A stretch of 32,000 nucleotides of DNA from Candidatus Odinarchaeota archaeon (lineage in GTDB: Archaea > Asgardarchaeota > Odinarchaeia > Odinarchaeales > Odinarchaeaceae): the NCBI GenBank assembly GCA_016839265.1, contig JAEOUO010000004.1, positions 223-32,222 on the forward strand, in the 5' to 3' direction. Below are positions 16,088 through 27,921 of this stretch, piece by piece (the stretch's first letter is position 1; each line of letters opens with the position of its first letter). The notes below the pieces were generated by a model that was not told where the DNA came from, did not search any database, and worked only from the letters and a program-made list of their open reading frames with translations. Position numbers and translations under genes: made by a program.

Positions 16088-17026
16088 CTATGATAGAAGA
16101 GTTTTATTTATCTCCTCTTTTAACTGTGCATCTAACCTCTCATCCAACGGTTTACTTCTAAGCTCTCTTATAAAACCTAGTATATAGTTTATCCTCTCAT
16201 CGAATTTATTCGTGTTCTTCAAATTATATAATAAATCTAAAAGCGCATCATACACACGCTCGTTTACAGCCCCCCCTTCTAAGGTTTCTCTAAGCTTTTC
16301 TAAAGCGTCTTCAACACATGTTACACGTTTCACACCGATATTCTCCAAGTCTTTTCTAATATTATTTTCAATAAGCTTTAAACCGTAAATGAAACTCTCC
16401 TCAGATGATTCGATTACAGCTCTAAGATCTATAACAGTGCTAACTATTTTTTTAACAGCATTCTTTAAGTCACCGGTCTCAGACTCTCCTATAACGCTTT
16501 GTTTTTCTAGAATACTTGTTAAACCCTCCTCTATTTTATTCAATTTCTCTAGAACATTATTTAATTCAGTACCGGTTTCACCGCCAGGTTTAATAGTTGA
16601 AAGCTTCTCGTTAACAGAATCTAATCCCTCTTGAACTGTTTGAGTTAACTGTTCAATATTAGCTTGAAGATTTTCAAGCCGGTTAACAACTTCATTAAAT
16701 GTAACACGACTCTCCCCTGTCTCTGAAACATCTCCCTTCACCTCGCTTAATAACTGTTTTAACTCTTCAAAACCTGCTTTAATATTCTGCTCTAGATTAC
16801 TTGCTTGAAGCTTACCCACCTCTTCTGTTAAAGCTGTGATAACACTTGTTAACCCTTCAACATCCACTCCAGCTCCAGCCGCCGGTGTAAGACCCCCAGA
16901 CTTAAGCTTCTCTATAAGCTCGTCAACCGAAACCTTCAAGCTGCCAACCTGTCTTATAATATAACGGCGACCCTCAACCATCTCCTCCATCTTCTTATTT
17001 ATCTCTTCTAAAACGTTTTGACTCAA
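16088..17026 (-). CDS. Hypothetical all-helical coiled-coil protein with repeated Gly/Glu/Thr linkers
   Basis: Heptad-rich ORF with host-like codon usage. I place the start at TTG 17026, behind a GAGGGGT SD; the ORF track starts at 17044. Confidence 0.75.
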   Translation of the reverse strand: MSQNVLEEINKKMEEMVEGRRYIIRQVGSLKVSVDELIEKLKSGGLTPAAGAGVDVEGLTSVITALTEEVGKLQASNLEQNIKAGFEELKQLLSEVKGDVSETGESRVTFNEVVNRLENLQANIEQLTQTVQEGLDSVNEKLSTIKPGGETGTELNNVLEKLNKIEEGLTSILEKQSVIGESETGDLKNAVKKIVSTVIDLRAVIESSEESFIYGLKLIENNIRKDLENIGVKRVTCVEDALEKLRETLEGGAVNERVYDALLDLLYNLKNTNKFDERINYILGFIRELRSKPLDERLDAQLKEEINKTLLS

Positions 17027-17132
17027 CTCAGCTACCCCTCGCAAATTACTTATCTATAAATTAATGTTTTAGCTTAATTAATATTACCTTTAATTTAAAT
17101 AATACTTTAACTTTAAACTCCGAGGGTTTTCA

Positions 17133-17594
17133 TTGATTATCAGGCGAGCTGATAAATCTGATTTAAATAAAGTATACTTGATAGAGAAGGATAGCTTCCA
17201 GGAGCCTTGGAGTAGAAGATTCTTCGAGTATTTTATAGATTCAGATAACACGGTTTTCCTAATCGCTGTAGAGGAGGATGTCCTCGGATACATCATCTGG
17301 CAGCTTGAATCAACTAGTAAACTTAAAAATTTTGAAGACTTGAACACCGGGCATCTGCTGAATTTAGCTGTAGGAAGAGAACACCGGAGGAGGAAAGTCG
17401 CCTCCAGCTTACTTGAAAGATTATTCATGGAAATCGATAAATATAAACCGGTGGCTACTTATCTTGAAGTCGCCTGCTCTAATCAAACTGCTGTGAATCT
17501 ATACCTTAAATTTAATTTTCAAATTTTATCTTTAATACCGAAATATTATAGATTAGGCGGTGACGCTTACCTTATGGTTAAAGTCTTGTTTTAA
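17133..17594 (+). CDS. rimI: RimI/Ard1-type protein N-acetyltransferase (GNAT)
   Basis: Motifs IEKDSFQEPWS, HLLNLAV...HRRRKVAS.LL, YLEV..SN..A..LY.K.NF and IPKYY..GGDAYLM. Confidence 0.9.
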   Translation: MIIRRADKSDLNKVYLIEKDSFQEPWSRRFFEYFIDSDNTVFLIAVEEDVLGYIIWQLESTSKLKNFEDLNTGHLLNLAVGREHRRRKVASSLLERLFMEIDKYKPVATYLEVACSNQTAVNLYLKFNFQILSLIPKYYRLGGDAYLMVKVLF

Positions 17595-18109
17595 ATTAAA
17601 CTCTTCAACTCTTTTAAAACCATTTGTTTAACGTTCACCCAGTTACCTCGAGTTAACGTGTAAACTTTCGTATCAGCCCGCTTTTTCACACTCTCCGTGA
17701 AAGCGTTATCGTAGAGCATAATCGAGCCGAAAACTCGACCGGAATCCAAGCTAGCTGTTATAAAATCTCTGAAAACCTTAGATGATAACTCCATTCTCCC
17801 TATTTCATCAACCACTATTAAATCGTAGCCGCCGGTTTTAACCTCCTCCTCTAAAGCTTTCACAACAGTTTCAAGGTTATCTAAGAAAACACCGTATTTA
17901 CCTATGAATACACTGCTCTGCTTATTATCAACTGAAGCTAGCATACTCTCTAAGCCGGAGAATGTTCTAATCTTAAACCCTACGCGTCTACCCTGCTTTA
18001 AAACCTCTTCTGTTATGAAGCCTACAGTTTTTTTACCGAGCTCTTCAACCACGCTTTTAATCAACGTGGTTTTACCGGTTCTAGGCGCTCCGGTAACTAG
18101 AATATTCAT
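17591..18109 (-). CDS. THEP1-type NTPase (NTPase_1, COG1618)
   Basis: Walker A GAPRTGKTT, then GFITEEV, GRRVGF, GKYGV and VDEIGRMEL. Confidence 0.92.
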   Translation of the reverse strand: MNILVTGAPRTGKTTLIKSVVEELGKKTVGFITEEVLKQGRRVGFKIRTFSGLESMLASVDNKQSSVFIGKYGVFLDNLETVVKALEEEVKTGGYDLIVVDEIGRMELSSKVFRDFITASLDSGRVFGSIMLYDNAFTESVKKRADTKVYTLTRGNWVNVKQMVLKELKSLI

Positions 18110-18124
18110 CTCATAAACCCCTTG

Positions 18125-19576
18125 TTAAGCTGCAAGCTTCTTCAGAAACTTAGCGCATAAAGCAGCTTCATCCAGTGTCTTCTTCAACTCTCCCTCTTTT
18201 AATTCATAATCTTCTACTGTGAGCTCGCCGATTTCTTTTTTAGCTTTCAACAATTCTAATTCTTTTTTCAAAACATCGCTTAAACTATTTAAATCCGTAA
18301 GCTGCTTCTCCACGAATTTTTTAAATAACACGTTTTTCTCTTCAAGACGGGCTAGTTTCTCAGAATACTCTTTTTTTACTTGAAGGTAGGCGCTTTCACT
18401 AATCTTGCCTTCTCTTCTACGCTCCTCTAATACTTTAAGTCTTTTTTCTAATGTAAGCGTTTCTTGAACAGCACCCTCCCCTGGTAGCCTCTTATACTCT
18501 GAGTTTAAATCCCGCTCTAATTTATTTAATTCATCTATCTCGTTTTTAATTTTCTGAAGTTCAACTCTTAATTGTTTTAGATCTCCTCCAGCGTCTATTT
18601 TTAAAAGAATCCCATCTAGTATCTTCTCATATTTTCTTTTAGTAGCCTTCAATCTTTCAAGATGCTCTCTTAACAATACCTGTTTTTTTAAAACGTTAAA
18701 TGAGACCTCTTCTTCTTTAAGCTCTTCAATTATTAAGCGTGGTTTGATTTCAACCAGCCGCCGACCCTCCTCTACTATGCTTTTCAACCCGGTTCTCGGC
18801 GTGGCTCCTAAATCTTTTATTCTTAAAACTCTAGCTTTAATCCGTTTCACTTCTCCTTTTGAATAGAAAATAAACTCTTTATTCAAATTCATCAAATTAT
18901 TTTCATCTAAGCCGAGATTTCTAATATATGTGTTTAACGCGTTTAAATCCGCAGGCTCCTGGTGTCGTCCGAAAAACCTTATATTACACTGGCTGATAAC
19001 CTTCTTACTGATATCCGCCGGTCTCTGAGTAACCCATATAGAGTGCAACCCCCTCTTTCGACCTCTCTTCGCTACCTCCATAGAAAGATCTAAGAGTCTA
19101 CTATACCCCCCTCTCTCCGGGGCGATTATATGAGCTTCCTCCACTGCTAAAACACACGGCTTTTTCTCTAAACTAGCTGTTTTAAAAACGGCTTCAAGAA
19201 TCAGTGAATGTGTTTGAATCTGCTCGGAGGAGAGCAAATCCGAGGTGTCGAATAATAGGATTTGAAACTCCCCGCTGTAAACGCGCTTCACTATTTGAAT
19301 AGCGGATTCAAGGTTAAATCCTTCAAAGGATAGGTCTCCGCGGTTACCGCCTATAATAAGAGAAGAATACCAGTCTTTAAAAGCAGTATACTCCCCTTCA
19401 GGGTCTATTACAATAATAGGTATTTTTAAATCAGCTAATTCTTCTAAGATCACCTTAGCAAGATAGCTTTTCCCGCTACCAGACTGACCTGTGATGAAAA
19501 CTCGGAGCCCCTCCTCCTCATAACTGTTTAAATCAATCTGACAGTTTACACCGATATTTAAAATCAATAAAACCAT
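18125..19576 (-). CDS. HerA/FtsK-like ATPase (DUF87) lacking a HAS barrel, fused to a C-terminal coiled-coil (CdvA-like) region
   Basis: Motifs FITGQSGSGKS, IDPEGEY, Walker B LAVEEAH, arginine finger GRKRG, VTQRPA and SQC. The C-terminal ~200 aa are coiled coil with two G(K/E)(I/L)xxxxY motifs. Confidence 0.85.
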   Translation of the reverse strand: MVLLILNIGVNCQIDLNSYEEEGLRVFITGQSGSGKSYLAKVILEELADLKIPIIVIDPEGEYTAFKDWYSSLIIGGNRGDLSFEGFNLESAIQIVKRVYSGEFQILLFDTSDLLSSEQIQTHSLILEAVFKTASLEKKPCVLAVEEAHIIAPERGGYSRLLDLSMEVAKRGRKRGLHSIWVTQRPADISKKVISQCNIRFFGRHQEPADLNALNTYIRNLGLDENNLMNLNKEFIFYSKGEVKRIKARVLRIKDLGATPRTGLKSIVEEGRRLVEIKPRLIIEELKEEEVSFNVLKKQVLLREHLERLKATKRKYEKILDGILLKIDAGGDLKQLRVELQKIKNEIDELNKLERDLNSEYKRLPGEGAVQETLTLEKRLKVLEERRREGKISESAYLQVKKEYSEKLARLEEKNVLFKKFVEKQLTDLNSLSDVLKKELELLKAKKEIGELTVEDYELKEGELKKTLDEAALCAKFLKKLAA

Positions 19577-19660: not shown

Positions 19661-20323
19661 TCAACACGATTTTAATCTTTTAACTAAGTTTAAAACACGT
19701 CGCTGAAAATCATTTAAATCTTTCACCGTGAACCTACCGGCTTTAACACCATCCCTGTCTAAATAATAGGATTTAACCCCCAGCTTTCTAGGAATCAAAT
19801 AATCTTGAATCCAGTTATCCCCTACATGCGCAACCTTATTCGCATCCACCTTCAACTCCATGCATACACGTTTAAAAACCCCTGGATCACTCTTCGTTGA
19901 ATTAAAATCAGTTGAAGCTGAGAACACCCTCCTAAAATATTTTCTAATACGCTTAGTAGTTCGCTCCAAAAACTCCACAGCGGAGTTCGAGACAATAATC
20001 AAATCAAATCTCTCAGCTAAACCCTCTAAAACCCTCTCAACCTCAGGGTAATAGGAGATAACACCCTCATACTTATTTAAAACCTCCTCGTAACCTGTTA
20101 AACCGAATCTATCAAACCAGTAACTTATCTGATACCATTCTACGCGTTGATCCCCAACCTTCTCATACTCCCCTATAATAAACTTCTTAGCCTCCTCGAA
20201 GCTAACCCCTTTTTTATCAGCATACAAGCAGGGAATCGCCTCCTCCCAGATTAAATCAGCATATCTTCTAGTCGCTAAAGTCCCGTCCACGTCAAAAGAT
20301 AAAACCTTCACCATAACATCCAA
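19661..20323 (-). CDS. HAD-superfamily hydrolase
   Basis: Motif I FDVDGTL, motif II VSNS, motif III K, motif IV HVGDN...D. Confidence 0.92.
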   Translation of the reverse strand: MDVMVKVLSFDVDGTLATRRYADLIWEEAIPCLYADKKGVSFEEAKKFIIGEYEKVGDQRVEWYQISYWFDRFGLTGYEEVLNKYEGVISYYPEVERVLEGLAERFDLIIVSNSAVEFLERTTKRIRKYFRRVFSASTDFNSTKSDPGVFKRVCMELKVDANKVAHVGDNWIQDYLIPRKLGVKSYYLDRDGVKAGRFTVKDLNDFQRRVLNLVKRLKSC

Positions 20324-20445: not shown

Positions 20446-20676
20446 TTAGAACGGCAGAGTAATAGAACTTAACGTTCGAGTAACACCTGGAATCCCCTGA
20501 ATCTTCTCAATAATACCCTTAATACCCTCCATGTCATCCGCAGCAATCCTGACAATAATATCATACGGCCCTGTAATAGCGTAATACTCTTTAACACCGT
20601 CAATACCCTTCAACTTCTCTAAAACATCATGAATCTTACCAGTCTCAACCTCAACCAACATAAAAACAATCGCCAT
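20446..20676 (-). CDS. Stand-alone Lrp/AsnC ligand-binding (RAM) domain protein
   Basis: Motif IDGVKEYYAITGPYDIIVRI...IQGIPGVTRTLSSI. GGTGAG SD upstream. No HTH. Confidence 0.9.
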   Translation of the reverse strand: MAIVFMLVEVETGKIHDVLEKLKGIDGVKEYYAITGPYDIIVRIAADDMEGIKGIIEKIQGIPGVTRTLSSITLPF

Positions 20677-20760: not shown

Positions 20761-20978
20761 GAAAAACTTTATACTATAATAACAATAATTAGCAATATAA
20801 TCTTATCGTTACCTATGTTCATAATTTCTCATTCAATTTTTAAACCAATTATATAAAAATGCTTTTATTCCAGACATAAAATTTGAATTATAAGAATGTG
20901 CAATTTCCCTAAAACGTGAAGATAGATTTTAGCGAGTTAAAACGTATTGAAATTTTAGTAATATAGAATTATTTTAAA

Positions 20979-22109
20979 TTATTTGCTTTTTCCTTTTACT
21001 GGTTCAAGATAGTTTTTTATCAAGTAGTTCCAGATCCGTTTTTCTTTCACCTCGATAAGTGTCACCTGCTTTCCCAATATTTTGATTATTTTCTTATCCG
21101 CTTTTCGAGGCCATTCCTCATACCATCTATACTTAACGTTTATTTGATGAGCGTAAGTTACGCTCTTCGATTTATTATAATAGTACTTAGATTCTTTAGT
21201 CACTTCAGCTATCCCTAAAACTCTGCACGCCGAATAAATAATGAAAACATCTCCCTCCGAGATTTGATTTTTGAAATTCCAGAGCTGATCGGTGGTATAT
21301 TTTATTTTAGTCTTTTCACCCCAAACTCTTTTAGCCTGTCGAGCAACTTCCCGTTTAAGTTCACTATATGAACTGAAACGTTTGAGGTCTCCCACTTCAT
21401 TCCATCCAATAGCTACGAATCCATCACCATTATCTTTAATAAATTGGAGCCATTCACTTTTCCAATATCGCGCCTTCTTGCCAGGGGAGATTTTCCAAAT
21501 TTTTTTAGGCTGGGGGCTTATTAATTTCTCTTTTATTTGAACAGGTGATGGCAAAGTATCTTCTTCACCCTTTATTTTAGAAGCTCTCTCGCTTATTTTG
21601 TTAGTTGCACTTGTATATTTTTTAACATCATCTTGAGTTAGATCTGGAGCCGTGTCAAAATAAAATTTGAAAAATTTTTCTGCATCTTTTAGAAATTCAT
21701 TGTTTTTCTCTTCTATTTTTACTAGTACATTTGCTTCCGCATTTTTACTCTGCGCAGCCTTAGTGAGGTTTGAAGAGCCGACCACTATAAATATCGACTC
21801 TCCATAGATTATGAACAGTTTTGGGTGAAAACCACGATTATCCCATCTTCTTATAGTGACCCCTTTTTTAGTTGAAAGCGTTAATAGAGTTTCCGCAGCC
21901 TCTTTATCTGTAATTCCAAGTTTACTAGATAAACCAAACACTATTCTTAGTTAACCACCTCTTTTAATCAACGAGTTAAAGCTTTCCATCAGCGCTTGTA
22001 ACCCGCTTTCTTTTACATAGGCTATTGCAACATCTACTCTAGTTGATTGACTAATTAATTTCGGTAGTTCCTCAGCCAGTGAAGGTCCGTCAAGAAATTT
22101 TATCTCCAT
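20979..22109 (-). pseudogene. PLD (HKD)-nuclease fused to an EVE/PUA-like domain, interrupted by one in-frame TAA; candidate Type IV restriction enzyme
   Basis: ATG 22109 (GGGGGT SD) encodes MEIKFLDGPS...VDVAIAYVKESGL...KRGG. TAA at 21953-21951 is followed in frame by LRIVFGLSS...HPKLFI...GSSNLT...NAEAN. The C-terminal domain has WKISPG, VAIGWN..GDL, GDVFIIYS..VLGIAEV. Confidence 0.8.
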
Positions 22110-22249
22110 AAAAACCCCCATCTTTATCTTTTACTATAATTTAAATTTATAACTTTTAAATAATTTTTATAGTTTCAAAATCCTTGATGATTTTTATAAA
22201 GAAGACCGCTAATTGTCTCATAGAAATTTATTGATTTATGTGGAATATT

Positions 22250-23302
22250 CTATTTAACTTCTAAAGTTAAATCGTTTTCTTGATATCCAAATAATGTCAG
22301 AATCTTTTTTGAAAGTTTAACAATAGCATTAGCACTAAGATTAGTTTCTACGTAAATATCTGTATTACTTATTTTTTCTGGGTGCCTTAACTCATTAGAA
22401 TTTTTAGAAAAATACGGTCTCTTTTTTCCTACCAAATTCAATACCATCCCAAATTGGTTTCTATGAGACAAAAACATGATTTCACATATCTTAATCAACA
22501 TTCCTACCCACGATTTTACTGGATATTTTTCACTCCTAAAAGTAAACGAGATAATCGACTTTCCCGTGTATTCTTCTTTTTCAGAAATTATAGGGGGGGC
22601 TGCCACTTTTGTTTTTGATGGTTTTACTAGTGTGGGGGTAGTAATAGTTTTTAAAAACTGTGCAATTGCTTCGCTATCTGGTTTATAACCGCATATTTTT
22701 TCTGTTGTAACAGACAAAAGTTCAACTAAAATCTCATCCTGCTCTTTTATGATCTTTTCCCAAGCTTTAGGAATACTTTCTTCAATTAATTCCTGTTTTC
22801 GTCGGTTTTTATAGATATTTTCAGCATTTTCTACAGCTTTACTAGAAATTATATTTTGCTTTGCAAGAAACATTTCAAATTTCTCTGCTATGTCTTTCGC
22901 GTCTTGTTCGCATAAATCAATGTTATAAAATTTTCTCTGCTCCCAACTTCCTTCAGTTAAAGGTAGATAAAACCACCAGCTGATCCCATTAGTGAGGATT
23001 GCAAGCTTAACCCCTTCTTTAAATGAATATTTTAAAAGCTGATCTTGATGTTTTTCTAAATCTTCACCAGGCTTCTTGACTTCAATAAAAACCTTGTTTT
23101 TATCACCACACCTGAGAGCGTAATCCACTTTACCGGCTTCAATAGGATATTCAGGATAAACCTCGTCTATATTATAAAAATTCCAACCCAAACAATCTAA
23201 AATTTTCAAAACCACAGCCTGCTTAACAGCCGCCTCATCAAAAAAACTAAGTCTACTATCTTGTTGAAAACTATTTATTAAATCAAATAACCTTTCATTC
23301 AT
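22250..23302 (-). CDS. HsdR-N-type PD-(D/E)XK nuclease with a SeqA-like C-terminal domain
   Basis: N-terminal EAAVKQAVVLKILDCLGW, VYPEY, VDYAL, FIEVKK, QLLKY, AILTNG.SW.FY. C-terminal LVGKKRPYF...HPEKISNTDIYVETNLSA. Confidence 0.8.
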   Translation of the reverse strand: MNERLFDLINSFQQDSRLSFFDEAAVKQAVVLKILDCLGWNFYNIDEVYPEYPIEAGKVDYALRCGDKNKVFIEVKKPGEDLEKHQDQLLKYSFKEGVKLAILTNGISWWFYLPLTEGSWEQRKFYNIDLCEQDAKDIAEKFEMFLAKQNIISSKAVENAENIYKNRRKQELIEESIPKAWEKIIKEQDEILVELLSVTTEKICGYKPDSEAIAQFLKTITTPTLVKPSKTKVAAPPIISEKEEYTGKSIISFTFRSEKYPVKSWVGMLIKICEIMFLSHRNQFGMVLNLVGKKRPYFSKNSNELRHPEKISNTDIYVETNLSANAIVKLSKKILTLFGYQENDLTLEVK

Positions 23303-23616
23303 CCTATCAAATCCTTAACTCTGTATGTCTTTTAAATATATACTTTTAAAATTATTTATATAAAATTTCTATGATTTCTATTTTATTAAACTGATTAATT
23401 TAATTTGCGCTATTACTTAGTTATAAACTTTTATAAATAAAATATTAATACTCCCAGCTAATAATTTTAATCAAATCTATTAAATTTTTAAATCTTAACT
23501 GTTACTTAGCGTTTGATAAAAAACTATTTTTATAGAATATAAGTTAAGTATGATCCTTTACCATGTTAATAAAAAATTATTTAATGTTGAAGAACTCTTT
23601 TATTAATGGGGATTAA
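23303..23616. promoter_or_regulatory. Very AT-rich divergent promoter region; candidate unwinding element
   Basis: Hand count gives 29 G+C in 180 nt (23341-23520, ~16%). Contains several TTTATA/TTTAAATATA boxes. Confidence 0.5.
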
Positions 23617-26600
23617 ATGACATTTACGCTGACAGAACCTACGGCGGCTTCTGAAATTAAGGAGCTTATTAATCAGATTATTCAGGAGGAGAATTTACCT
23701 TTAGACTCAGCAAAAGTGGAGTTAATGGATTCTAGAGGGCATAGACCCGACATAATTATATTCGATCGATTAAATAAACCAATATGCGCTATAGAAGTAA
23801 AACGTCCTTTTATATCCCCGTATCAAATTGAATTATTTGAACAAGCATTACAATACGCTAACACTGAAGGAATCCGTTTCTTCGCAACTTTTAATTTTAA
23901 CACTCTCGTATTATGGGAGACATTTAAAGAAGGGGTTCCAATTAGGGATAGACGATATAAAGAATATTTTACCGCTGATATAATTGATTTACACGATCTT
24001 CTACAGCTCTCAGTCAAGAATAATATCAAAAAGGGTCTTAGAGAATTTTTACAAGACTTAGTAAAACTTCAAGTGGCTAAAAAGACCGAGGAGATTCTGC
24101 CGACTCTTGAATTTGATAAAATCTTCATTGACTATCTTCATTCCCTTTTGAACTCAATGAAAATCCCTTTAGTTACTGAACTCAATAAAAAACTTGATAT
24201 TGATCCTGTTTTTAAAAATAAACTCTTAGAATGGTTAACTACACAAGGATGGGATTCTACATATATAGATGTTAAGGGCGTAATAGATGTTGTAGCCCGC
24301 CAGTATATTTTACTTCTCTTAAATAAGATAATGTTTTATAAAATTTTAAGCTCACGTTATAAAGAGATAAGACCACCTAATTACAAGCTTTTAAGTCTCC
24401 CAGATGAGTTACCTACATTGAAAATACCTGAAGATATCACTGATGGTGGTAATTTACAGCGCATTTTAAAGAGTTTTTTTGAAAAAGTTCTGCTCATAGA
24501 CTATGAAACAATCTACGAATCCGATTTCCTGGATGAGATTAAACTACCAGACCCCCTTGTGTCACCTATAAGAATACTTGTAAATGAATTTGATAAATAT
24601 GATTTCACCAAGATTGACTATGAGGTGCTCGGGAATATTTTCGAACGGCTAATACCTGAAAAAGATCGTCATCTACTAGGCCAATACTTCACAAGATCGG
24701 ATGTGGTTGACCTAATTGTTGCCAGCTGCGTTAAAAATAAAAATGATGTTATTCTCGATCCTGCTTGCGGGGCAGGGACATTTTTAATCCGCGCCTATTC
24801 CCGCTTAAAATATCTTGGTGCTGAAGGTCCTCACAGTAGTTTTCTAAATAAATTATGGGGTATAGATATAGCTAAATTCCCAGCCCACTTAACCACAATT
24901 AATCTTGCTATAAAAGATTTATCGGAAAGAAATAATTATCCAAGAGTGATCTGCTCAGATTTCTTCAAAGTTTCACCAGGGACCAAGATTTACTCACCTT
25001 ATTTTATAACTGAAGGATTAGATAAAAAAAATTCCCGGCATGAACTCCCCTCGTTTAATGTAGTTATGACCAATCCCCCTTATACACGGCAGGAGGAGAT
25101 GGAGGAGAAACTTGAAGAAGGATATAAGAATACCGTAATAGAATTAATAGCAAAAGAAACTGGGATGACACTAGGTAAAAGAAGCAGTATTTACGCTTAC
25201 TTTTTCCTGCATGGAAGCGTTTTTCTAGGCGATGGAGGTAGGCTTGGTTTAATCACATCAAACTCTTGGCTTGATGTAGACTACGGTAAATATTTACAAG
25301 AATTTTTCTTAAAGAATTTTAAAATAAAATATATAATCGACTCTAAAGTAGAAAGATTTTTCGAAGACGCAGATATTAACACAGCGATAACAATCCTTGA
25401 GAAATGCAGAAATCAAGAGGAGCGCGATAATAATATTGTGAAATTTGTAGAGTTGAGAAAGAAGTTGCCTGAAGTTCTCTCATATTTTGGTGACCACGAC
25501 ACTGAATACGAGAAATGGACGGATAAAGAAAGATGGGCGGCTGTAGATAAATTTTTAGCATACCTCGATAAAATAAGCGGCATCACTATAAATGAAGAAA
25601 TAGGAGTAAGAGTCTACCCTAAAAATCAGAGAGAATTATATGAAGAAGGCCTTGAAGAGGGAAAATATGCCGGCTCAAAATGGGGTAAATATATTAAAGC
25701 CCCAGATATCTTCTTTAAAATATTAGAAAAAGGAAAAGACTTATTTATTCCTCTAAAAGATATTGCGGATATTACAGGAGGAATTATAACAGGTAAAAAT
25801 AATTTTTTCTATCTTAGAGAGAGTCAGATAAGAAACTTTGGAATAGAAGAAAAATTCTTGATTCCAGTGATTAAAACTCCTAAGGAATTAGGAAAAATTT
25901 ATTTTACTAAAAAAGATCTGAAATACAAGTTGTTCTTTGTTACGGAGGAAAGAAATAATATTAAAGGAACTAATGCATTAAAATATATTGAATATGGTGA
26001 AAAACAAGGATTCAACACTAACCCAACATTCAAAGCGCGAAAACATTGGTACCAAATACCAGAATTGAAACAAGCTGAACTATTATGGATTGATTTAAGA
26101 GGGGAAAAACATATTTGCCATTTGAACGTCGATAATGTACCATTTGAACATAATTTCTATGGTATAAATCCAAAAAAAATAAATAAAGAACTCTTATGCG
26201 CCTATCTAAACAGCACTCTTTCTTGGTTATTTATAGAAGTACTTGGTAGAAGCAGTTTAGGAGAGGGTGCAATAAGGTTGGTTGGACAGGATCTTAAAAA
26301 TTTTCCTACAATATTGCTTAAAGAGGGGGTGCCCGACTCTTTAAAGATTCAAAAGATTTTTGATAAACTAAAACACAGGGAGATTGAAAGCGTGTTTAAA
26401 GAAGTCGGCGCGAATAAACCCGAAGAAGTTTCCTTAGAAAAAGTTAACCAAGATGTAAGGGAACTTGATAAGGTAATAATTGGTGAAATTTTAGGTTTAA
26501 CTGATGAAGAACAATTAGAGGTTTACAGGGCGGTTGTTGACCTTGTTAAGTCGAGGATAGAAAAAGCCAAGAGCGTTGAGAGAAAAAGCAATAAAGAAGA

Positions 26601-27030
26601 GTTTTCCACGAACATAGACCAGATAAAAGACATAGTTTTGCATGGAATAGACAAGACAATAGTAGATGATGTGAAAAAGTTTATTCCAGAAAATTATGAT
26701 AATAGAGTGATTGAAATTAAAGCTTCGAAGAGTATTGAGGTTAAAGTTGATTTGCACGGTAAATTTAAGTTGGTAAGTGGTGAAGAAGAAGTTGAATTCT
26801 CTACTTTAGAGGAGGCTGAATATGCTAGATATATGTTGATGAGAGGTAAAGAGAGGATGGTAATTCCAAGAGATACGCAAATTTTACGTGATGTTCTTGT
26901 TAAGTTTAAGAAATTGGATAAGGCGATTAAAAATAGGATCAATGAATATTTGAAACAATTAGTGAGTAAGGAGAAAAAACGGAAATTAATAGAAGCTGAA
27001 TTATATAGGAAGATCTGGGCTGCTTTATAG
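23617..27030 (+). CDS. Type IIG fused restriction-modification enzyme (REase + N6-adenine MTase + TRD, Eco57I-like)
   Basis: N-terminal nuclease RPDIII...AIEVKRP...QALQYA, then GQYFT, motif I ILDPACGAGTFL, GIDI and motif IV NPPY. The C-terminal target-recognition region includes LCAYLNSTLSWLFIEVLGR. Confidence 0.88.
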   Translation: MTFTLTEPTAASEIKELINQIIQEENLPLDSAKVELMDSRGHRPDIIIFDRLNKPICAIEVKRPFISPYQIELFEQALQYANTEGIRFFATFNFNTLVLWETFKEGVPIRDRRYKEYFTADIIDLHDLLQLSVKNNIKKGLREFLQDLVKLQVAKKTEEILPTLEFDKIFIDYLHSLLNSMKIPLVTELNKKLDIDPVFKNKLLEWLTTQGWDSTYIDVKGVIDVVARQYILLLLNKIMFYKILSSRYKEIRPPNYKLLSLPDELPTLKIPEDITDGGNLQRILKSFFEKVLLIDYETIYESDFLDEIKLPDPLVSPIRILVNEFDKYDFTKIDYEVLGNIFERLIPEKDRHLLGQYFTRSDVVDLIVASCVKNKNDVILDPACGAGTFLIRAYSRLKYLGAEGPHSSFLNKLWGIDIAKFPAHLTTINLAIKDLSERNNYPRVICSDFFKVSPGTKIYSPYFITEGLDKKNSRHELPSFNVVMTNPPYTRQEEMEEKLEEGYKNTVIELIAKETGMTLGKRSSIYAYFFLHGSVFLGDGGRLGLITSNSWLDVDYGKYLQEFFLKNFKIKYIIDSKVERFFEDADINTAITILEKCRNQEERDNNIVKFVELRKKLPEVLSYFGDHDTEYEKWTDKERWAAVDKFLAYLDKISGITINEEIGVRVYPKNQRELYEEGLEEGKYAGSKWGKYIKAPDIFFKILEKGKDLFIPLKDIADITGGIITGKNNFFYLRESQIRNFGIEEKFLIPVIKTPKELGKIYFTKKDLKYKLFFVTEERNNIKGTNALKYIEYGEKQGFNTNPTFKARKHWYQIPELKQAELLWIDLRGEKHICHLNVDNVPFEHNFYGINPKKINKELLCAYLNSTLSWLFIEVLGRSSLGEGAIRLVGQDLKNFPTILLKEGVPDSLKIQKIFDKLKHREIESVFKEVGANKPEEVSLEKVNQDVRELDKVIIGEILGLTDEEQLEVYRAVVDLVKSRIEKAKSVERKSNKEEFSTNIDQIKDIVLHGIDKTIVDDVKKFIPENYDNRVIEIKASKSIEVKVDLHGKFKLVSGEEEVEFSTLEEAEYARYMLMRGKERMVIPRDTQILRDVLVKFKKLDKAIKNRINEYLKQLVSKEKKRKLIEAELYRKIWAAL

Positions 27031-27921
27031 TATTTTGTTTAGTGCTTGTTTTAGTGTGTTTGTTTGTTGTGTGATGTTTTTCCAGGGGTTTGGTGTGTTT
27101 TGTAGGTGTTGGAATATGTTGTTTATGTTGTAGGTTTTAGCGTTTAGGTTTTTGTTTTCTAAGTCTTTCCATGTTATGGGTGTTGCGATGGGCGCTGTTT
27201 TTTTAGCGCGTAGGGAGTATGGTGCGACTGAGGTTTGAGCGTATGCGTTTCTGGTTGTGTCTATGAAGAGTCTGTTTTTTCTTTTTTCTTTTCGTTGTTC
27301 GACGGTGATTTTATCCGGGTTGTTTTTAGCTATGTTTTTAGCGATTTTCTGGGCGAATAGTCGTGTTTGCTCGAAGGTGTGTTCTCTTTCTATTGGGATG
27401 ATTACGTGGACTCCTTTGGATCCGGTTGTCATAATAAAAGTGTTTAGTTCTAGCTTATCTAAGGTTTCTTTGATTAGGAGGGCGGTTTGCCGGACTGATT
27501 CGAAGTCTTCTGGTGTAGCTGGGTCTAGGTCGAATACTATTTTATCAGGGTGGTTTGGTTTATCGTATTTGGCGAGCCATATGTGGGGTGTGATGCAGGC
27601 TTGCTCGGTGATGTATAGGAGGGTTTCCTTGTTTTGGCATAACAGGTATGTGGTGTCTCCTCCTGTTTTATTATCTAGCTTGATTTTTTCTATCCATGGG
27701 GGGAAGTATTCCGGAACTTCTTTTTGGAAGAAGCCTTCTTTGCTTATTCCATCGGGGAAGCGGTGCATTGTTAATGGTCGATCTTTTAAGTATGGTAGCA
27801 TTAGATTCGCTATTTTTTCATAGTATTGTATTACTTGGAGTTTGGTGATTTTATCGTCCGGGTATAGTATTTTATCAGGGTTGCTGACTTGGATGACTTG
27901 TTTTCCTGCTTTAATCTGCAT
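27025..27921 (-). CDS. ligD: LigD-type primase-polymerase (NHEJ polymerase domain), stand-alone
   Basis: Motifs SNPDKILYP, RPLTMHRFPDGI, FFQK, VFDLDP, TTGSKGVHV, FIDTTRN and VAPYSLRA. Confidence 0.93.
   Translation of the reverse strand: MQIKAGKQVIQVSNPDKILYPDDKITKLQVIQYYEKIANLMLPYLKDRPLTMHRFPDGISKEGFFQKEVPEYFPPWIEKIKLDNKTGGDTTYLLCQNKETLLYITEQACITPHIWLAKYDKPNHPDKIVFDLDPATPEDFESVRQTALLIKETLDKLELNTFIMTTGSKGVHVIIPIEREHTFEQTRLFAQKIAKNIAKNNPDKITVEQRKEKRKNRLFIDTTRNAYAQTSVAPYSLRAKKTAPIATPITWKDLENKNLNAKTYNINNIFQHLQNTPNPWKNITQQTNTLKQALNKIL

Follow-up and report, generated by a model that had tools for sequence, protein, structure and literature searches.

A compact HerA/FtsK-superfamily ATPase carrying a CdvA-like tail in Odinarchaeia

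Introduction

A single open reading frame of a Candidatus Odinarchaeota archaeon joins a HerA/FtsK-type ATPase to a coiled coil reminiscent of CdvA, which raises the question whether a DNA pump has here been coupled to ESCRT-based cell division. The sequence-only reading of this gene had suggested as much, proposing an archaeal functional analogue of FtsK that is targeted to Cdv/ESCRT structures. The window, i.e. the whole stretch of DNA that was analysed, comprises 32,000 nucleotides and lies on contig C4 of the genome under study (G000), whose nearest genome is that of Ca. Odinarchaeum yellowstonii LCB_4 (G001). Three additional host sequences are referred to as P0003 (ERZ4756918), P0004 (MHA1409365.1) and P0005 (GCA_054387235.1).

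The fusion gene and its genomic setting

The reading frame is uninterrupted (Table 1), and the true start is probably the TTG codon at position 19567, where the database copy and the homologues begin, giving a product of 480 amino acids. In the AlphaFold model, the ATPase is followed by a disordered linker (residues 259-280), a coiled-coil hairpin (293-360) and three helices (367-482). Contigs of oil-field/hydrocarbon metagenome runs show no indel within positions 18125-19576, and no RNA run is listed among the sequencing runs containing this stretch. The gene is flanked by those for a HAD hydrolase and a THEP1-type NTPase, in keeping with the earlier observation that nurA, mre11 and rad50 are not adjacent; the nurA-herA-mre11-rad50 operon of the genome is situated apart from the fusion, on contig C2.

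Elsewhere in the window, a 318 amino acid soluble coiled-coil protein with glycine-rich hinges (16088-17044) has no family match above cut-off, and the order of genes around it is preserved in both LCB_4 and the P0003 host. A 6.3-kb defence island (20812-27108), encoding a PLD-EVE protein, an HsdR_N-SeqA-like protein and a 1137 amino acid restriction-methylase fusion, is missing from the same site in these two hosts, and other oil-field populations part from the window sequence at position 20811.

Table 1 Positions of the fusion gene, its domains and motifs and its neighbours in the window, with examples of giant HerA genes at other Asgard loci
Feature	Residues	Positions	Strand	Basis or remark
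Fusion gene	483 aa	18125..19576	(-)	ORF with zero internal stops; AlphaFold mean pLDDT 88.6
Compact HerA/FtsK-superfamily ATPase	1-258	18803..19576	(-)	Pfam DUF87 above cut-off
Walker A, GQSGSGKS	30-37	19466..19489	(-)	Invariant in alignment A1
Walker B, ending EEAH	141-149	19130..19156	(-)	E146, E147, A148 and H149 invariant
KRGRKRG	170-176	19049..19069	(-)	Invariant; G172, R173 and G176 also invariant in the wider family
TQRP, conserved glutamine (sensor) motif	183-186	19019..19030	(-)	Alignment
Variable linker, holding the fusion junction	259-290	18707..18802	(-)	pLDDT <50 at 259-280; length varies among homologues
Coiled-coil hairpin	helices 293-328, 333-360	18497..18700	(-)	Came with the rest of the tail from the zinc-ribbon family
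CdvA-like three-helix domain	helices 367-388, 394-448, 454-482	18128..18490	(-)	Two tandem steadiness-box-like hairpins
Hairpin motif 1, LEERRREGKISESAY	starts at 383; G390	18386..18430	(-)	
Hairpin motif 2, LKAKKEIGELTVEDY	starts at 443; G450	18206..18250	(-)	
THEP1-type NTPase, downstream neighbour		17591..18109	(-)	Pfam NTPase_1, 128 bits
HAD hydrolase, upstream neighbour		19661..20323	(-)	Marker of the syntenic site
Giant HerA examples		L180:5635-8295, L183:7242-10283, L184:1402-4125		Three Asgard families

A compact ATPase head of the FtsK/HerA superfamily

Residues 1-258 score 48.1 bits against the Pfam DUF87/HerA model (cut-off 23.2), and the Walker A, Walker B (EEAH), KRGRKRG and TQRP motifs are kept in every full-length homologue in the alignment. 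The KRGRKRG site occupies what we take to be the arginine-finger motif position of the superfamily. The best structural match is HerA of S. solfataricus (4d2i; VIA Z 26.3), with Z values of 20.4 for the STIV2 packaging ATPase B204 (4kfr) and 16.4 for bacterial FtsK (2ius); the target-normalised TM score to B204 is about 0.8, with most of this compact protein covered. With both Walker motifs, the arginine-finger motif, the conserved glutamine and the fold present, the fusion protein belongs to the FtsK/HerA superfamily. The Walker A and B motifs are separated by about 115-116 amino acids, compared to about 255 in canonical HerA, and because of this spacing (116 vs about 255) the large helical insert can be said to be missing. 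The description of a minimal HerA motor of ~260 amino acids without a HAS barrel holds, with the ATPase beginning at about residue 5. A PHROG 'terminase large subunit' match was dropped, as only the ATPase was covered and no virion gene occurs among the scanned neighbours.

A CdvA-like double hairpin in the tail

The two tail motifs had been described as having their glycines 60 amino acids apart, and G390 and G450 are separated by exactly this distance. A pattern derived from LEERRREGKISESAY and LKAKKEIGELTVEDY occurs twice in one of the 2861 ORFs of the genome, namely the fusion alone, and in 0/10,000 shuffles of the tail, a control that flatters the motifs, as they were the source of the pattern. 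According to hhalign, the hairpins are homologous repeats of each other (E 1.3e-5). The tail aligns with positions 1-96 of the PF18822 model at 16.8 bits, where the cut-off is 30, while the fusion profile finds the solved CdvA chain 9s9g by sequence (E 0.0012). The tail can be superposed on 9s9g over 120 residues at 1.7 Å with a VIA Z of 12.9, where values of 12.4-12.9 border on those attained by helical bundles without homology. When the model of a zinc-ribbon paralog (see below) is ranked by fold, CdvA is placed at the top and the Vps23 steadiness boxes next; Foldseek returned no match below E 0.001 for this model, with CdvA chains the sole long, low-rmsd matches. Given the PF18822 alignment, the E value of 0.0012 to CdvA chains and the ranking of the paralog model, the tail is accepted as homologous to the CdvA three-helix domain, the borderline Z notwithstanding. 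The earlier suggestion that it is CdvA-like, rather than a generic coiled coil or SHOCT domain, is thus supported by PF18822 and by both the sequence and structure of 9s9g, and SHOCT and GvpG were rejected as tail identities because either covers one hairpin only.

The chain terminates with the last helix at residue 482, and no E3B-like extension is present. A search for longer proteins (539-2000 amino acids) carrying the tail found none, which constitutes weak evidence. A 560 amino acid protein encoded elsewhere in the genome (C1:714266-715948; L033:4267-5949) begins with a signal-peptide-like segment and carries a double hairpin at its C-terminus (E 5e-5). It may be of the ribophorin-I/OST1 type, since PDB entry 8whn also matched the tail profile.

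Origins of the tail and the head

The full 200 amino acid tail matches a 231 amino acid standalone protein of the same genome (C1:174342-175037; L003:8343-9038; E 1e-41), which is built as a zinc ribbon, a coiled coil and a CdvA-like domain. Proteins of this family were matched in 100/151 Asgard genomes, and arCOG03733 shows the same architecture (Makarova et al. 2024, PMC10936438), the agreement being one of architecture only. In the tree, the fusion tails are placed among the zinc-ribbon proteins of Odinarchaeales and separate from their counterparts in other Asgard archaea (89/98), with the tail in this genus on a long branch. The tail descends from the zinc-ribbon/coiled-coil/CdvA-like family, not from CdvA. 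The zinc-ribbon cysteine motif is not found in the linker of any of the four fusions examined. Alignment A3 comprises 29 rows, one of which (L024) was taken from the wrong end and retained. The zinc-ribbon gene usually adjoins a conserved gene of about 100 amino acids and, in many cases, a tRNA endonuclease gene as well, and in the Asgard loci examined it adjoins neither ESCRT-III nor Vps4. A complex prediction combining the fusion tail and the tail of the zinc-ribbon paralog scored 0.26, where the mark was 0.32, and does not enter the argument.

The ATPases of all five fusions fall into one clade (100/100). Its sister consists of DUF87-coiled-coil proteins of 450-610 amino acids ending in a winged-helix-like domain, calls that rest on weak Pfam matches; no paper characterising these compact proteins was found. 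Several sister-family genes adjoin a tyrosine integrase and a methylase and others occur on orphan-rich, virus-like contigs, while some of the nearest ATPase relatives are located close to restriction/CRISPR-type genes. The donor of the ATPase head is likely a mobile element, although a viral donor stays unproven because a search of viral contigs yielded only distant ATPases (23-31 % identity). Both the winged helix of the donor and the zinc ribbon of the recipient were dropped in the swap, with winged-helix matches confined to the sister family and this DNA-reading domain absent from the fusion. A 560 amino acid HerA encoded near the zinc-ribbon gene in family f12 was rejected as donor, as it belongs to a separate ATPase clade. 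A HerA-coiled-coil protein of 555-570 amino acids (e.g. L173:7755-9422), present in 38/68 genomes of the Asgard family f9, likewise forms a clade separate from the fusion.

Distribution, loss and selection

Fusions are encoded by five hosts (G000, G001 and P0003-P0005), which are Odinarchaeia where named; five copies are full-length and one is partial. Two of the 301 phylum genomes searched contain the fusion. The related-locus search of genome contigs gave no match, metagenome contigs yielded no further fusion, and the ESM Atlas yielded no usable match, whether queried by features or by fold. Two genomic locations can be distinguished. In the P0004 and P0005 hosts (both Odinarchaeia) the fusion takes the locus that the zinc-ribbon gene occupies in G000, G001 and G004, between a tRNA endonuclease and 98 amino acid gene on one side and a 124 amino acid gene on the other, and its tail is well conserved, with 45 % identity to the G000 zinc-ribbon paralog. 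In G000, G001 and the P0003 host, the fusion is found at an AsnC-HAD-NTPase site and an intact zinc-ribbon gene is kept elsewhere; in the P0003 host a single contig carries both genes. This two-locus pattern would follow either from a duplication and differential loss or from transfer out of a lineage with the in-place fusion. The window also encodes a 76 amino acid AsnC-like protein (20446-20676), a paralog of which (about 70 % identical) is encoded near the zinc-ribbon locus (C1:181024-181260); this pair is a possible trace of a duplication joining the two loci.

In a congener (G002) the HAD and NTPase genes are 145 bp apart with no fusion remnant, and this absence represents a loss, because the more distant P0003 host has the fusion at that site. 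A further genome (G003) carries no information on this point, since its assembly did not yield the flanking genes. The clean loss in the congener shows the fusion to be dispensable. The LCB_4 orthologue is one base short in an A-run (L007:988-1010) and truncated at 426 amino acids, with the sequence beyond the run still conserved in another frame; this frameshift is either an assembly error or a recent break. Rough pairwise estimates on short segments of G000 and G001 give dN/dS values of about 0.25 (ATPase), about 0.5-0.6 (tail) and 0.14 (zinc-ribbon paralog). The ATPase head is under purifying selection and the tail under weaker selection. Since selection on the tail is weaker than on the zinc-ribbon paralog and its branch is long, the tail may be losing specific partners in this genus.

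These patterns bear on the alternative that the protein is a weakly selected, domesticated ATPase of a mobile element or defence system, in which the tail serves as a generic oligomerisation handle replacing the donor stalk and has no link to ESCRT or a scaffold. The integrase, methylase, virus-like and restriction/CRISPR-type surroundings of its nearest ATPase relatives are consistent with such an origin, as are the clean loss in G002, the frameshift of one base seen in the G001 assembly and the relaxed tail. However, no integrase, nuclease or partner gene accompanies the fusion, which is flanked by ordinary host genes in conserved order even across hosts that are about 60 % identical, and two hosts hold it, with a well conserved tail, at the locus of a gene widely kept among the Asgard archaea. 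Domestication is considered a somewhat unlikely account.

Relation to ESCRT and cell division

The ubiquitin-ESCRT cluster of the genome encodes UEV-Vps23, Vps28, ESCRT-II, Vps4 and two ESCRT-III proteins, with the ESCRT-III and Vps4 genes at about 957-963 kb on contig C1 and the fusion on C4. Three FtsZ/tubulin-family genes are all located away from the fusion. Neither a PRC barrel (PF05239) nor an above-threshold CdvA was found in the 97%-complete genome. Co-occurrence with ESCRT had been put forward as a check, and every fusion host examined encodes ESCRT. The CdvA coiled coil had also been described as the recruiter of CdvB, which is not borne out: CdvA binds CdvB via its C-terminal E3B peptide, while in CdvA filaments the lateral contacts involve the PRC domain and the coiled coil makes head-to-tail contacts (bioRxiv 10.1101/2025.09.15.676241).

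An archaeal counterpart of FtsK that keeps the Cdv/ESCRT division site free of chromosomal DNA would accord with the HerA/FtsK fold, the intact motifs and the genuine CdvA-like domain, and the compact fold is compatible with DNA pumping, the packaging ATPase B204 being equally compact. However, the fusion is devoid of a PRC barrel, an E3B tail and a transmembrane segment (the top 19-residue hydropathy, 1.57, falls within a core strand), and it no longer has the winged helix, the donor domain that most resembles FtsK gamma. CdvA was not found in the genome, where FtsZ/tubulin-family genes are present, and the fusion occurs in only 2/301 of the phylum genomes searched and is lost in a congener. 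Targeting of an FtsK-like motor to Cdv/ESCRT structures is thus weakly supported, given the missing PRC barrel, E3B peptide, winged helix and membrane anchor, the lack of a true CdvA among the genome matches, the loss in a congener and the LCB_4 frameshift, and an essential role of this kind is contradicted by the clean loss in G002, the relaxed tail, the missing anchor and the location of the ESCRT genes elsewhere. An essential FtsK analogue is therefore unlikely, and the FtsK-like reading is the least probable of those considered here.

A different connection to ESCRT is suggested by a giant HerA of 870-1013 amino acids, which is encoded directly behind ESCRT-III in a sister family (G004-G006) and two other Asgard families. 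It was not found in four genomes of the Odinarchaeum genus, including the single-contig LCB_4, and in this genus the two ESCRT-III genes are adjacent where the giant HerA is missing. The fusion could represent a non-orthologous replacement of this protein, reaching ESCRT via steadiness-box-like contacts. Such a replacement would fit the presence of the giant HerA in three families and its absence from the four genomes, and the UEV-Vps23 of the genome carries the same hairpin motif (E 8e-5). Yet the two ATPases belong to separate clades with unlike Walker spacing, and the fusion gene never adjoins ESCRT genes. Furthermore, G002 is without both proteins, so that neither is required, and a single lineage amounts to one event, which may be coincidence. 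The replacement is regarded as very unlikely. No steadiness-box tail was detected on the giant HerA with the hairpin profiles. A broader conjecture, in which the fusion serves as a HerA-type motor that uses its double steadiness-box tail to dock on Asgard ESCRT-I/CdvA-like scaffolds and takes over from the missing giant HerA, is also judged unlikely. If true, a HerA motor would have joined the Asgard ESCRT system twice independently, by gene neighbourhood and by fusion, and the movement of DNA or protein would be coupled to membrane scission.

Proposed role of the fusion

The explanation that is tentatively preferred, at somewhat short of even confidence, is that the fusion is a chimeric, lineage-restricted accessory ATPase that arose by domain swap, with a tail that oligomerises or docks on zinc-ribbon/CdvA-like or steadiness-box proteins. 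The conservation of its arginine-finger and sensor motifs leads to the prediction that the ATPase head forms a ring; the tail, by analogy with the same fold in CdvA and the ESCRT-I steadiness boxes, may act as an oligomerisation and docking stalk. The motor would replace the zinc ribbon as the working end of the scaffold, and would be recruited to assemblies formed by the zinc-ribbon/CdvA-like protein or by other steadiness-box proteins. Judging from the nearest solved relatives (HerA, B204 and DndH), the threaded substrate would somewhat more likely be DNA than protein. The role of the fusion would be accessory, rather than a required step of division.

The importance of the fusion is limited because the gene is rare and dispensable. 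It nevertheless provides an unusually traceable domain swap, in which the donor family, recipient locus, relocation and loss are all visible, and a soluble entry point to an Asgard-wide CdvA-like protein that is as yet uncharacterised. Should the tail dock on ESCRT-I-like proteins, it would furnish evidence of a physical link between HerA-type motors and Asgard ESCRT, for which there are elsewhere only hints from gene order.

Comparison with known systems

By their defining features, the fusion protein is not CdvA, a HerA-NurA helicase or FtsK. The core ATPase fold is common to the HerA of HerA-NurA (4d2i, 9x1l), but the HAS barrel, large helical insert and nurA partner of the latter are all missing. 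Bacterial FtsK (2ius) shares the superfamily fold and differs in its membrane anchor and gamma winged helix, while B204 (4kfr) also shares this fold, with no capsid genes occurring near the fusion. The giant HerA, which is placed in a clade separate from the fusion ATPase, is distinguished by its length, a Walker spacing of about 260 and a gene directly behind ESCRT-III, none of which applies to the fusion. The closest counterparts of the head are the DUF87-coiled coil-winged helix proteins (P0101-P0108, P0007-P0010), with a 34-41 % identical ATPase and equal Walker spacing, but these end in a winged helix where the fusion ends in a CdvA-like domain.

Sulfolobales CdvA (9s9g/9s9i, PF18822) and the fusion share the three-helix double hairpin and the paired G-x-(I/L)...Y turn motifs. 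CdvA has a PRC barrel, an E3B peptide and a cdvB/cdvC operon, all three of which the fusion lacks, whereas the fusion includes an additional coiled-coil hairpin and the ATPase head. The zinc-ribbon family, e.g. OdinLCB4_001365 (WEU40609.1), has the coiled coil and CdvA-like domain in common with the fusion tail, with the HerA ATPase taking the place of its N-terminal zinc ribbon. Steadiness boxes of ESCRT-I are known from yeast Vps23 (2p22/2f66/2caz) and human (6vme) structures and from Asgard UEV-Vps23 (bioRxiv 10.1101/2023.07.25.550441). Each hairpin of the paralog model superposes on this box (Z 9.5-10.1), and the turn motif of the fusion hairpins recurs in the UEV-Vps23 of the genome; the fusion differs in its two tandem hairpins, the absence of a UEV domain and the location of its gene outside the ESCRT cluster. 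Multidomain steadiness-box proteins are patchily distributed among the Asgard archaea, and docking on ESCRT-I has been proposed for them (Makarova et al. 2024, PMC10936438). As in the fusion, a steadiness-box-like hairpin is there combined with an unrelated domain and a patchy spread. The literature search brought up no account of a HerA/FtsK ATPase joined to a CdvA/steadiness-box domain, and the architecture looks new among these patchy Asgard steadiness-box fusions.
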